From: Octopus vulgaris | Lineage: Eukaryota | Assembly (NCBI GenBank): GCA_951406725.2 | Contig: OX597819.1 | Coordinates: 21,018,001-21,082,000 of the forward strand | Length of the DNA stretch: 64,000 bases | Direction of reading: 5' to 3' | Shown here: positions 15,666 through 59,382 of the stretch, in pieces | Position numbering within the stretch: position 1 is the stretch's first letter | Layout: each line of letters opens with the position of its first letter | The notes under the pieces: generated by a model | The model's database searches: none | What the model was told of the DNA's origin: nothing | What the model saw: the letters and a program-made list of their open reading frames with translations, nothing else | Program-made: the position numbers and the translations under genes

Positions 15666-15910
15666 ACATACAAAAACCGTTAGATTTACTTCAATATTTA
15701 AATTTAATTTGTGTCGAAATATTTTCGTCGCTCTGAAACCGTGATCTGTTCACTGACAAAACTTTAGCACGAAGTTTTTTCATTGAACTGGTCACGGTCT
15801 CAAAGTGACGAAAATATTTCGACTCAAATTAAATTTAAATGATGAAGAGAATCTAACGGTTTTTGTATGTTTTCAAATGACTTATAAACGTCTTCCACGC
15901 TGCAATTGTT
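15666..15910. mobile_element. Palindromic PLE terminal-repeat element with inverted HHR pair and 3' tail
   Basis: Inverted arms 15666-15764 / 15772-15870, then a unique 40-bp tail ending at (TA)n. Confidence 0.8.
15712..15758 (-). ncRNA. Hammerhead motif, G3:C8 core variant
   Basis: Minus strand tgtca GTGAACA gatcac-ggtttcaga-gcgac GAAA atat TT cgaca; the mirror arm gives perfect stem II gtcac/gtgac but a decayed core. Confidence 0.6.
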
Positions 15911-15922
15911 TATATATATATA

Positions 15923-16135
15923 GTTAATCCAAACAAGAAAACACAAAAAAACACAGCAACGTGAGGACGTGGAACAAATAAAGTATTATTGGACGCTCAG
16001 GAAAGAAGGGAAGGAGGGTTTAACGTTTCGAGCGGAGCTCTTCGTCGGAAACAAAGGAGAAGGAAAGATCCCGAGAAGGGAAGACAGAGGAAAAAAATTG
16101 CTGGCGGTGCTCACTAGGTCACATGTTGAAAGCAT
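15923..16135 (-). mobile_element. PLE terminal-repeat fragment carrying an HHR
   Basis: Abuts (TA)n; homologous to 63685-63846 (+); contains the motif at 16018-16052. Confidence 0.75.
16018..16052 (-). ncRNA. Minimal hammerhead motif (C4 variant)
   Basis: gttt CCGACGA a gagc-tcc-gctc GAAA cg TT aaac; stems I and II perfect, palindromic AACGTT stem III. Confidence 0.8.
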
Positions 16136-16179
16136 ATATATATCAAAGTTTGGTACAACGACAGCTCTTTCAAGTGTCG

Positions 16180-16355
16180 AGTGAACTCGAGTACATGGAC
16201 CTTAGTGCCGATCCGGTGCTTATCCTATTGACACTGAAATGATAAAAGGCAAAATTAAATTCAGCGGAACTTGACCTCAAAGTGTAAAGTCGTGCGAAAT
16301 GCCCCGCTTAGCATTTTGGCCTGCGTGCTAACGATTCTGCCAGATCATCGCCTTA
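16180..16355 (-). mobile_element. Degenerate SINE family B
   Basis: cgtgctaacgattctgccagatcatcgcc is the reverse complement of the family head. Confidence 0.7.
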
Positions 16356-17354
16356 AAGCTCGTAAAGATATGCCATATATAATGTAGAGCAGGCGATTCT
16401 TCACAAACGTGAAAACCACTTAGCTCGAATGCTTTTCATTGCACGTCTCCAAGATAATGTGAGAACAAGGAAATTAGTACAACTTAAACAATTTGTAGCC
16501 TGCAAGTTACAGAAAATATCTGTGTATAGTTGCTTAATCCGGCAATATAAAATATCTAGGCCTGGTTTGGTTTTCTCAAGTCCATTATACGAGATCCATA
16601 GTGCATAAGTGACCGAAGTGATATCATTCCTCTAAACCCGACGGTGAACTGCGAAAAGTTCAAGGCCAGTAATTTTTCGGGTAGGAGAGTTGACTGCATC
16701 AAACCCAATGTCTGTCTGTCGGTTTATGTTGTGCAACGCGATGGGGAGAAAGCTAGAGTCAACCTCGGCAGGATTTGATCTCCGGAAGCAAAAACATTAA
16801 ATACATTTTCTGGAAGAAACACAAGATTACGTGATCTTGGATGGCAGATTTTGACTGTTTATCTATCGTTGAGTTCTGTGTTTAAATAACCAGATAAGGG
16901 AATTTATAAGCTTCTTGAGAGGGTTAAATGGAAGTTAGCTTTAACATGAGATGCGAAAACATCAAAACACTATAAATTTTATACAGGACACGTTGAAGAT
17001 TAATATTTGTATAGCTAAAGTAGAATTAGAAGAATTTTTGCGAAGAGTAACTATAAAGCGTCAAGAATTTAATAAACAAATTAAATTTGCTAAATTTGTT
17101 TTTGGTTTTTCATTGTATTCAAACAAAACACGGATGTATGTTTTTTTTATATATTTATTTCAAGAAGAGGCACATTGAAATCGCTGAAAAATAAGCGAAG
17201 CACGTTTGTTTTCCATAACACGTATACACACACACACTTACAAACGCAAATACAACCATTCGTTTATTATATCTGTGTGTATGAATTTTTGTGCGTGTGT
17301 TAGGAGACCAACAAGACATTTATAGAAAAGCAGTTCCGTTGAAGCCACTCGAGC

Positions 17355-17778
17355 ACTCTTACTCCTTTACTCTTTTACTTGTTTCAGTCATTTGACTGCC
17401 TGCGGCCATGCTGGAGCAGCGCCTTTAATCGAGCAACTCGACCCCGAGACTTATTCTTTTGTAAGCCAAGTACTCATGCTATCGGTCTCTCTTGCCGAAC
17501 CGCTAAGTAACGGGGACATAAACTCACCAGCATCGGTTGTCAAGCAATGCTAGGGGGACAAACACAGACACACAAACACACACACGCATATATATATATG
17601 TATATATATAAACATATATACGACGGGCTTCTTTCAGTTTCCGTCTACCAAATCCACTCACAAGGCTTTGGTCGGCCTGAGGCTATAGTAGAAGACACTT
17701 GCCCAAGGTGCCACGCAGTGGGACTGAACTCGGTACCATGTGGTTGGTAAACAAGCTACTTACCACACAGCCACTCCT
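17355..17778 (-). mobile_element. SINE family A, full length
   Basis: Reverse complement of 6324-6748, with short tandem tail repeats. Confidence 0.9.
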
Positions 17779-18089
17779 ATCTTACAAGTGGTTCTCAGCA
17801 ACGTACTTACGAACTGCTTTGAAACAAATTTACAAGGGTAGAATGACGCAGTTGGGTTGATGCGGCCCATCAAAATATATCATATAATATTTGTCACAAG
17901 ACTAAACAAAATTAATGAAAATGACTTTGATAGTGAACTACGGAACGATGAAAGAATAAGTCAGAAACATGTTGTTATGCTCAGAATTGATTTCATAGTA
18001 TACATACAAATATACATATAAATATACACATGCATACACAAATATAAATATCTATATATGATTTAATGCATACAGGATTTACACATGTG

Positions 18090-56569: not shown

Positions 56570-57445
56570 ATTAGAGAAGAACCACTATGTAGCATTTCAA
56601 CAATGAAATAATGATATAATTAAATTATACCACATAGAAAACATTAAATATACGATAAAACATATACTACTAATTGAGTAAAGTACAAAATAATAAATAA
56701 ATGGCATATAATTGGTAAAAAGACTACACGTGTTTCGTGGCTATATTTTTAAACTGATAACAGTAAAATCAATTCAATTTAAATATAGTCACTCTTTATG
56801 TCCATGATAAAAAGAATAAAATATACAAATAAGTAAGAAAATATAAATATATTTAAAAATACGTAATTTTACAATAAAATTCAAAAATGCTGTATCTGCC
56901 GCGTGAGCTTATATACTATCACCCACATAATCAAGTGCTGCCTTAAAATACCTGCAAGATACTCCCGTGAGATATATCATTGTTTCCAAAAACACACTTA
57001 CGATGCAATCCACAGGAGCATATTTTTCTCATCGCAATATAAGCAACACACTAGAATAAGAAGTTATTCACACTTTTAAAAATTGACATCAATTGATACA
57101 CCATACTAGAAGAAGCAGCACAAGCCAGATGTTTTCGTATGGGACAGAGAACAGATATTATGCCGTAAAGTAGAGATCAACAAGCCAATCGATGTAGATG
57201 CGTAAAAAAATAAATATACAATGGAAAAATATCTATTGAGAACTAATGAAGAACTTACTGCGCTTAGTATCCTAGTCGTAAATTTTCATTTTTACCAATT
57301 ATTTTAAATGAAACAACGAATTTCCATGAAACCCAAAATGATTCGCATTCTGAAAATAAATTCGATTAGCAGAACAGTGAAAACTACTAAAACATTCTTC
57401 GGATTCTTGGTTTGAGGTTTATTTGTGAATATTTTCTCACTGCCT
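56570..57445. mobile_element. PLE-derived fragment with decayed HHR on the minus strand (56721-56803)
   Basis: ggac ATAAAGA gtgactatattt...aaatatagccac GAAA cacgtg TA gtct; flanked by (TA)n. Confidence 0.6.
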
Positions 57446-57500
57446 ATATATATATATATATATATATATATATATATATATATATATATATATATATATA

Positions 57501-57850
57501 AAGGAAATGAAGAAAATGCTGACAAAATAATTTTAGTAAGGGGGAGTGTATTTAATTAGGTGAAAGTTCTTTTTACCGGTTGCGCATTTGTTATGCTTAT
57601 CAAAAATATTGTCTTAAGAGAGATAGAGTTCCTTTCTGATAGATTTTTTTTCTCTTACAAGAGAAAAAAATCTATCAGAAAGGAACTCTATCTCTCTTAA
57701 AAAATATCTTTTGATAAGCATAACAAATGCGCAACCGGTATAAAGAACTTTCACCTAATTAAATACACTCTCCCTTACTTAAATTATTTTGTCAGCATTT
57801 ATTTTATTTCCTTTTTTTATATATCACAACTCGTGTTCCACATCTCCTTT
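57501..57850. mobile_element. 313-bp near-perfect palindrome with inverted HHR-like pair and tail
   Basis: Arms 57501-57656 / 57659-57813; (TA)n on both sides. Confidence 0.9.
57569..57745. ncRNA. Pair of hammerhead-like motifs, U3:A8 plus C13 variant
   Basis: TTGATAA gcat-aacaa-atgc GCAA ccgg TA in both arms (minus 57569-57606 with ttt/aaa stem I; plus 57707-57745). Confidence 0.65.
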
Positions 57851-58539
57851 TTTAAATATATATATATATATATATATATATATATATATATATATATACA
57901 GATACAAAATGGAACAAGAACGCAAAACATCCAGGTAGACGATACAAAAAACACGGACGGGTCATTCGACGCCTTTAATATTCAGTCAAGAACCGGATCA
58001 TCCTCGCAATTTCGGCTGATTAATCTATGACTAGACACAGACACAAAGACAAACACACGCGGATATAAGAATTAACGAATTGCACAGATTTTTACTGAAC
58101 TAACGTGTATACTAATTCCATGTTAATGACAGATGGATAGATAGATAGATAGATAGATAGATAGATAGATAGATAGATAGATAGATAGATAGATAGATAG
58201 ATAGATAGATAGATAGATAAGGCGATCAACCAGACTATCGGATGTTGTTGTACATCGCTTGTCACATTGCGCCTTGCATCGTTTTAGGTTTGGGATGATG
58301 CCACCCTGCAAGTTATGATGGCGGTTGGTAAAACGAATTTTGGAATTCCCCACCCAACATTTCCTCGTAAAGGATTGATTAATATGCACCTTACAACAAT
58401 TTATTGTGTGATTCCTCACGTTAGATTGCTTTCATGCATAAATTGTTAACAATTATCGGTATCTCTCTCTATATATATTTATCTAACTCACGCTATGTAC
58501 GTGTGAGGAGGGTGCGTGCGTGTGTGTGTATGTTTGTGT

Positions 58540-58860
58540 GTTCAAAATTCCATTTCAAACATGGACAGAGGTTCATAATTAAGATTGGTTTCGCCTGTGA
58601 ATCCAAAAATGTAAATCACGTGATAACTTGTTCAGGTTGTGGCCTCAACTATATATGTCAAATAAAGACGTCTCTCAGACGGAGAATGCACTTCATAAGG
58701 AACCGATGCGCTTCCCAAGTTATAGAGACATACTATTAAACGAAAGCAAAGATGTATGGAGAATCTCCAAATTTCACTGGGGGTTTTTTTTTCCGATTTA
58801 TCAACACGAAGTAAGAATTTCTATGCAACGATGATTAAATAAAGGGAATATACATATAAA
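58540..58860 (+). mobile_element. PLE GIY-YIG domain relic
   Basis: FHFKHGQRFIIKIGFACESKNVNHVITCSGCGLNYICQ is homologous to 51870-52000. Confidence 0.85.
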
Positions 58861-59229
58861 AAAGAATAGAAATCGCACCAGAGTATGAACACATGTCTAA
58901 TTTTCGATATTGTTATGTCATGAAAATTAGCAACAATCGGTTGACCATACTAATATAAGCAGCAACCTGGTGTTAACTCTTTAAAACATATGTACATTCT
59001 GTGCATTGTCCTTCTTTTTACTACACACACACAGATGTATATATGTGAGTGTATCTATCTATCTATCTATATATATATATATGTATATATATATATATAT
59101 GTATGTGTGTGTGTGTGTGTGTGTGTGTGTGTGTGTGTGTAAACGTTGAATATATACATGTATATGCATATATATATATATATATATATATATATATATA
59201 TATATGATAGATCTTTAGTCACTACATAC

Positions 59230-59382
59230 ATTTTTTTCTCTCCTTGTTTTTTGTGTCCCTTTCTGTAGAAGAGCGTAGGCTCGAAACGTAAAAGACTTTT
59301 CTATTCCTGAGCGCAATATTAATAAATCTGTTTGTTTTGTACACCACCTGTCTTCGTCTTTTGTTTTTTCGTAAACTTTCCC
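59230..59382 (+). mobile_element. PLE terminal-repeat fragment with HHR at 59259-59294 (U6 variant)
   Basis: cttt CTGTAGA a gagc-gtag-gctc GAAA cg TA aaag; fragment ends in (TA)n. Confidence 0.8.

Follow-up and report, generated by a model that had tools for sequence, protein, structure and literature searches.

Why do the hammerhead ribozyme motifs scattered through a stretch of the Octopus vulgaris genome carry short self-complementary palindromes in place of stem III? The stretch (contig OX597819.1, positions 21,018,001 to 21,082,000; 64,000 nt, hereafter the window, with coordinates counted from its first letter) is AT-rich animal DNA, rich in microsatellites and short repeats. The first-pass annotation had proposed that most families of the motif carry a different palindrome, which serves each of them as its own dimerisation code and leaves solo copies quiet. 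Our analysis favors another account, to which we give a probability of about 0.78 as a whole: the sites would be 3'-end stubs of Penelope-like elements (PLEs) with dimer-type hammerheads, family selectivity would be a by-product of self-matching, and pairing between core positions 3 and 8 would have been under selection. More unexpected is the set of swapped or altered core letters, above all a contig-supported family with G3:C8, which may be able to cleave.

Hammerhead motifs in PLE stubs

We kept 18 motif copies from about 13 families, named here by their position in kb, and parsed them as type I hammerheads (Table 1). The core N3-U-G-A-N-N8-A with a paired 3:8, followed by GAA and an A15.1:U16.1 pair, was present; the core letters are canonical in eight copies, carry a Watson-Crick swap in four and U4C or A6U in three, and are decayed in three. 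Stem I comprises 3-5 contiguous pairs in 9 of the 18 copies, and N17 is A, C or U in all of them as parsed. The G10.1-C11.1 pair follows an extra base in 16.0, 30.8, 59.3 and the right arm of 15.7, forms without it in 52.5, 56.7, 57.6, 57.7 and 2.55, and is broken in several old copies. Seven weaker candidates (7829, 12209, 19555, 32893, 39461, 48505 and 52995) were dropped, their core, stem II or stem I being missing or unclear.

A string check of the window located every previously named palindrome where it had been placed: AACGTT at 16022 and 23715, ACCGGT at 52520, 57575 and 57734, AAATATTT at 15717 and 15812, ACAGCTGT at 29364, ACAATTGT at 31502, ACACGTGT at 56726 and ACTGACGTCAGT at 52816. 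The assignment to stem III also holds at eight of the nine named sites, which are perfect palindromes in stem III register within minimal type I hammerheads of PLE stubs. Two strings had been drawn too wide: AACGTT and AAATATTT are palindromic but take in A14 of the core as well as N17, the base at the cleavage site; stem III itself is ACGT and AATATT. At 15.7 the palindrome is there, but the motifs face outward, with the left arm on the minus strand. The 31.5 site does hold its 8-mer, but this overlaps a 5-bp stem I, giving either G17 or a non-palindromic ACAAT; stem III is ambiguous at this site, and a small deletion there is possible. Counted by family, stem III is a perfect palindrome in 10 of 13, the exceptions being 31.5, 2.55 (a near-palindrome) and 28.8 (a hairpin).

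On its own, a palindrome after GAA shows no enrichment, with 81, 30 and 9 instances for lengths 4, 6 and 8 against 89.6, 33.5 and 11.4 expected from 60 Markov simulations. The sole enriched class was G/C-containing 6-mer palindromes after GAA (17 versus 8.6 ± 2.7 simulated, maximum 18). A descriptor that leaves positions 3 and 8 unconstrained, tuned post hoc once the sites were known, gave seven matches, six of which score at least 10, against 0.64 per simulation (n = 100). All six are Watson-Crick at 3:8 and four are palindromic, the null for Watson-Crick plus palindrome being 0.01 per simulation. With a second, plainer descriptor (strict U4, G5, A6 and A9, stem II not required) we obtained 11 matches: five were Watson-Crick, against a null mean of 0.98 and with none of 200 simulations reaching five, and six were not, against a null mean of 2.7 (maximum 9). 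In a prokaryotic background of 114 chance matches to the pattern of core plus stem II, a palindromic 4-mer accompanied just two, and a metagenome pattern scan returned three matches, none related to the window. An Rfam scan of the window gave no family at gathering score, and the best 150 of 384 weak matches, which were microsatellite or hairpin noise, included no hammerhead family.

Among individual instances, GAA plus palindrome at 51917 (minus) is a chance-level example lying antisense within the GIY-YIG frame described below. CTGAAGA at 23860 was rejected as lying inside a reverse transcriptase (RT) fragment of a retrotransposon without long terminal repeats (non-LTR), and ACGT at 55547 as part of a dispersed repeat with many window copies, which we take to be a short interspersed nuclear element.

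A decayed PLE lies at 49.8-52.65 kb. As in the Neptune clade, it carries an RT, a Zn-finger-like linker and, at the C terminus, a GIY-YIG domain in one (broken) frame, with a Pfam GIY-YIG match at 6.6e-07 and relatives combining RT and GIY-YIG at 38-49%; no relative of this protein was found among viral contigs. The frame is flanked by (TA)n runs ending at 49828 and starting at 52651 (Tandem Repeats Finder), and Neptune PLEs have a linker of CX2-5CxxC form and a microsatellite bias (PMC8557442). The 52.5 hammerhead sits about 285 nt behind the frame. A second, older PLE GIY-YIG fragment, 76% like the 51.9 kb region, lies at 58425-58736 (+).

Layout links further motifs to such elements. Four inverted pairs carry their hammerheads outward (15.7, 23.6/23.7, 28.4/28.8 and 57.6/57.7; self-BLAST), an arrangement known from 5'-truncated PLE insertions (PMC4209133, PMC8557442), and a (TA)4 run follows the cut site at a median of 159 nt, versus 710 nt for random positions, the 18 copies not all being independent. 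Both features fit with PLE insertions. No copy in the window stands in direct tandem with a copy of its own family, and the window holds no tandem array of 150-450 bp repeats bearing canonical type I hammerheads, the mark of non-LTR retrozymes or satellites (PMC7229834). At 28057-28180 and 28622-28745, a 124-nt direct repeat (98%) is interleaved with the 28.2-29.06 kb inverted pair and resembles the duplicated tail of complex PLE insertions.

Core letters and the 3:8 pair

In well-formed motifs, positions 3 and 8 take all four Watson-Crick forms: C:G, U:A (57.6/57.7), A:U (52.5) and G:C (15.7). Other core changes are U4C (16.0), A6U (59.3 and 30.8) and C13 (57.6/57.7). The cores at 16042-16048 (-), 59263-59269 (+) and 30798-30804 (-) represent two related families with a common stem II and ACGT, which differ in the core change, U4C or A6U. 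The 16.0 family has a further copy, decayed and truncated, at 63719-63777.

To place these letters in their families, contigs of four runs from four organisms were aligned to 15480-16110 at 80% likeness. In the right arm of 15.7, T>G at 15783 makes up 98-99% and T>A at 15789 99-100% of depth in all four runs (46-81 contigs each), and with these majority letters the right arm regains the GUGAACA core of the left arm. Stem I is likewise restored by the majority letters at 15779 (T>G, 92-97% of depth) and 15820 (C>T, 79-86%), both in four of four runs, and at 15716, where the plus-strand G is private to the window copy and A accounts for 92-98% of contig depth. G3:C8 is the majority state of this high-copy family. 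Among the variants listed, none falls at C8, in the left-arm core (15747-15753), in the 16.0 core (16042-16048) or in either stem III (16.0: 16023-16026). Every listed variant reaches ~45% in some run, so unlisted variants are presumably minority states; U4C is likely the majority state of the 16.0 family. Both 15.7 and 16.0 are clearly high-copy repeats, with a summed depth over the two motifs of 10^4 to 10^6 in run X1 versus about 20-60 for single contigs, although this sum is not a copy number.

At 15761, 85-116 contigs in three of the four runs continue into one shared sequence unlike the window, indicating the 5' truncation point of the window copy, with the family extending beyond it. 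In stem II, the A:U/G:C change at 15794/15806 resembles a compensatory one but was left uncounted, since CpG decay on both sides is possible. For the PLE at 52.5, related runs contain up to 0.32 of the sampled words, or about 96% identity by arithmetic, which makes two private transversions at positions 3 and 8 unlikely without amounting to proof.

Could the variant cores simply be dead, the source elements having spread despite lost ribozyme function and the Watson-Crick swaps being coincidental? Cleavage proved dispensable for insertion in vitro (PMC11167929), Naiad PLEs thrive without hammerheads (PMC8557442), and U4C, A6U and C13 are expected to reduce activity (for U4C and position 6, PMC3088659). 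However, the three non-canonical states that well-formed motifs show at 3:8 are all Watson-Crick; two of them require two transversions, and the remaining core letters, stems and palindrome are intact in those motifs, except for C13 at 57.6. We therefore regard dead cores as unlikely; the swaps suggest that cutting has been under selection.

Published work offers partial precedents. Natural U3:A8 is known (PMC4209133, PMC3088659), and U4C in a viroid and A6C in a phage are natural variants (PMC3088659). An engineered C3G/G8C double change partly rescues a PLE hammerhead, while either single change abolishes cleavage (PMC11167929), and as far as we found, G3:C8 is in print solely as such an engineered change (PMC3884650, PMC11167929). 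The 56 published representatives in the supplement of PMC4209133 include no cephalopod sequence and no case of G3:C8, A3:U8, U4C or A6U. Our literature search found no natural G3:C8, A3:U8 or A6U, leaving aside Lunse et al. and Arkhipova 2017, which may bear on the matter, and no study of octopus PLE hammerheads.

We tentatively propose that the PLE hammerheads of this lineage sampled all Watson-Crick 3:8 pairs together with U4C and A6U family-wide, and that G3:C8 and A3:U8 may be working natural ribozymes undescribed for animal PLEs. Cleavage by these variant cores is a prediction from their sequence. If true, the G3:C8 and A3:U8 forms would be invisible to CUGANGA-based searches: with C3/G8 or U3/A8 fixed in standard descriptors, genome counts would pass such families over. 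They would also provide natural evidence of selection on cleavage in PLEs, where the role of the hammerhead for the element has been called unclear (PMC8557442), and a series of dimer ribozymes in which stem I plus stem III set the choice of partner. Selection for cutting would be expected to leave just this signature, a pairing-preserving double transversion at 3:8 in a high-copy family.

Stem III, stem I and the choice of partner

The earlier remark that most palindromes are too short for a hairpin is borne out by energies: with a stem III of 4-6 nt, the hairpin is impossible or costs +5.6 to +6.0 kcal/mol, and the duplex pairs. This places the motifs in the dimer-type class of PLE hammerheads, in which a short stem III pairs only as a duplex. 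For that class, Cervera and de la Pena (2014) reported that a single motif was uncleaved and that dimers and trimers cleave at a low level, and gave a consensus of GAAAN-palindrome-NUH with an extra base before stem II and many families per genome (PMC4209133). A review repeats the account and credits Lunse et al. with dimer cleavage (PMC6765202). The palindromic pair-up design was thus published in 2014 and is not a private code of each family.

The longer palindromes could be read differently, as ordinary hairpin stems III of families that cut as monomers. The 12-nt stem III of 52.8 folds alone into a stable hairpin at -1.8 kcal/mol, 28.8 has a plain hairpin, and fungal and protist PLE hammerheads with a long stem III cut as monomers (PMC4209133). 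The 8-mers, however, cost +2.4 kcal/mol as monomers versus -6 to -11 kcal/mol in duplex form, and in all four families with 8- or 12-nt palindromes the bases that would form the loop are themselves self-complementary. Monomer cutting by these families is accordingly improbable.

Whether each family evolved its palindrome as an exclusive dimerisation code depends on how well the palindromes tell families apart. The 10 families with a perfect palindrome have only seven between them, of 4-12 nt: ACGT (16.0, 23.7 and 59.3), ACCGGT (52.5 and 57.6), AATATT, ACAGCTGT, ACAATTGT, ACACGTGT and the 12-mer. The claim of a different palindrome per family therefore fails, and a code per family is not supported as proposed: by a rough energy sum, stem III alone separates 5 of the 10 families and leaves the other five unseparated. 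Diversity of this kind is still what a code would produce, and in the 15.7 and 16.0 families stem III shows no majority variant among those listed. Sharing goes further, however, as ACGU occurs in 29 of the 56 published families across phyla (our count from Fig. S3 of PMC4209133), and 16.0 and 59.3 have not only stem III but also three of four stem I pairs in common. We consider an exclusive code very unlikely.

Adding stem I to the sum favors the homodimer in 10 of 10 families, with margins of 1.3-21.5 kcal/mol (1.3 for 57.6; about 4.6 for 16.0 and 59.3). Because every working family must match itself, this preference needs no selection for exclusivity, and family selectivity is probably a by-product of self-complementarity. 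The geometry of a double type I hammerhead implies that A15.1 of one partner would pair with U16.1 of the other and that stem I would be exchanged too, acting as a selectivity element. A natural set of families that share stem III and have different or similar stems I makes the partner selectivity of double hammerheads directly testable.

Selectivity and activation might instead come from the RT/endonuclease protein of the element, which would fold or pair the RNA while the palindrome merely permits pairing. The Anolis Poseidon hammerhead, the one PLE hammerhead assayed with its own protein, cut solely in the presence of that protein, which is predicted to be a dimer (PMC11167929), and protein-free dimer cleavage is low (PMC4209133). 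Yet this concerns one element only, and dimers do cut without protein, if weakly (PMC4209133). A leading role for the protein seems rather doubtful, but it is compatible with the by-product account and the two are not mutually exclusive.

In the account that we prefer, each of about 13 PLE families would have left 3'-end (pseudo-LTR) stubs with a minimal type I hammerhead. In the source element, a stem III too short to form alone would pair with the identical palindrome of a second copy, either the other pseudo-LTR of a tandem transcript or a separate RNA, probably with help from the element's protein; both dimer cleavage of the class and protein help are carried over from the literature by analogy. 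The double hammerhead would cut the tandem transcript after N17. Both stems I would form between the partners, so that partner choice would come from stem III plus stem I, and family selectivity would follow from self-matching rather than from a selected set of exclusive codes. Selection on source elements would have held 3:8 Watson-Crick while the letters changed among C:G, U:A, A:U and G:C. The window copies, mostly decayed, solo or inverted, are probably silent, and the earlier suggestion that solo copies stay quiet is plausible.

Several points weigh against this account. A3:U8 is known from one copy, U3:A8 from two non-independent arms that also carry C13, and the majority state of U4C rests on absence among the variants listed. 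The full descriptor is passed by no copy with a wholly canonical core, and monomer folds are not clearly above shuffles in seven of eight cases, although monomer folding scores are uninformative for these motifs. Only 1 of the 18 motifs is directly tied to a PLE frame, the other 17 having no linked frame in the window and being assigned by layout. The dimer energies are a rough sum in which homodimer preference arises partly by construction. Finally, in the one PLE assayed, insertion in vitro did not depend on cleavage, and RNA reads showed no ends at the site (PMC11167929).

Inventory, neighboring features and known systems

Table 1. Hammerhead copies and associated PLE features in the window.
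Position	Strand	Feature	Evidence or remark
2546..2598	+	Hammerhead, canonical core, 12-nt near-palindrome (8 of 12 paired)	Outside the range annotated earlier
15666..15870	.	Inverted pair of 5'-truncated PLE-type stubs, hammerheads outward	Self-BLAST 85%, alignment, high summed depth in 4 runs
15710..15760	-	Minimal hammerhead, core GUGAACA (G3:C8), stem III AATATT, U17; 10.1 and 1.1 changed here	
15776..15826	+	Second arm of 15.7; G3 and A9 lost here, kept in family majority	
16015..16055	-	Minimal hammerhead, core CCGACGA (U4C), extra A, 4-bp stem II, stem III ACGT, U17, 4-bp stem I	
23595..23644	-	Left arm of 23.7 family, decayed; A14 and palindrome altered	
23678..23727	+	Minimal hammerhead with canonical core and stem III ACGT; closing pair of stem II disrupted	
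28338..28403	-	28.8-family hammerhead, GAAA minus one A	
28828..28894	+	Hammerhead, canonical core, ordinary 3-bp hairpin stem III (non-palindromic), 5-bp stem I	
29317..29379	+	Hammerhead remnant, decayed core, stem III ACAGCTGT	
30770..30811	-	Relative of 59.3 copy: A6U core, palindrome decayed to ACAT	
31408..31514	+	Hammerhead, canonical core, long stem II, 5-bp stem I, ambiguous stem III	
47810..47887	-	Hammerhead, canonical core, stem III ACAATTGT, A17	Missed earlier
49864..52217	+	Decayed PLE frame (DKG motif, RT, CX4CXXC linker, C-terminal GIY-YIG)	Frameshifts and stops
52495..52533	+	Minimal hammerhead in PLE 3' end: core AUGAAUA (A3:U8), 2-bp stem II, stem III ACCGGT, C17, 4-bp stem I	Single copy
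52783..52835	+	Hammerhead remnant, canonical core, 12-nt palindromic stem III, decayed stem II	
56718..56806	-	Hammerhead remnant, decayed core, long stem II, stem III ACACGTGT	Fold z -2.9
57567..57610	-	Hammerhead, U3:A8 core, C at position 13, stem III ACCGGT	Left arm of 93% inverted pair (57501-57813)
57704..57747	+	Hammerhead, U3:A8 core, weak stem I	Right arm of 57501-57813 pair
59256..59297	+	Minimal hammerhead, A6U core, extra A, 4-bp stem II as in 16.0, stem III ACGT, A17, 4-bp stem I	

Long inverted pairs occur at 15666-15870, 23548-23769, 28169-29064, 57501-57813, 19062-19914 and 39257-39646. If transcribed, they would form long double-stranded RNA that hides the ribozyme and could be a target of adenosine-to-inosine editing. 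Within a transcript, each arm of an inverted pair would anneal to its antisense counterpart. Multi-arm repeats at 19000-19950 and 39380-39520 show CUGANGA, a weak stem II and GAAA, with cores at 19555 (minus), near 19735 (plus, a second copy) and at 39461 (plus); palindrome and stem I are not clear in them, and they are possibly further hammerhead families with a long stem III.

Fragments of non-LTR retrotransposons were seen at 10292-11060, 22585-24643, 21196-21828 and 42030-42638, with Pfam matches to RVT_1 at 24242-24643 and, weakly, to zf-RVT at 10309-10584; Pfam searches of 10 other frames of the window gave nothing firm. Two open frames of ordinary composition have no Pfam match: 35890-36174 (+), with a 78% copy at 10000-10089, and 46505-46840 (-), presumably a DNA-transposon fragment.

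Hammerheads of the PLE class are reportedly also the subject of Lunse, Weinberg and Breaker (RNA Biol 14:1499). Among the closest known systems is the minimal type I hammerhead of metazoan PLE pseudo-LTRs: it too has a type I layout with a short stem I, an additional base ahead of stem II and a palindromic stem III, exists in many families within a genome and in solo as well as inverted copies, and includes a U3:A8 variant (PMC4209133). The window differs in palindromes of up to 12 nt, the perfect ones listed in that source being 10 nt or shorter. Neptune-clade PLEs, likened here by domains and motifs, share the RT with a DKG motif, the CX2-5CxxC linker, the C-terminal GIY-YIG and the microsatellite flanks (PMC8557442), whereas the window copy is 5'-truncated and has a single hammerhead and no upstream pseudo-LTR.

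The double hammerheads of viroids and of newt and axolotl satellites likewise have an unstable palindromic stem III and cleave better as dimers (Forster 1988, via PMC4209133; PMC7229834). Those are tandem repeats with a 6-bp stem I and loop contacts (PMC4209133, PMC7229834), whereas the window motifs are dispersed stubs with a stem I of 2-5 bp and no tandem array. Engineered C3G/G8C hammerheads carry the same 3:8 swap as 15.7 and are partly active (PMC11167929). Compared with these constructs and with the natural core variants on record (PMC3088659), the window stands apart through a high-copy animal repeat whose natural majority state is G3:C8, and through the occurrence of A3:U8 and A6U.

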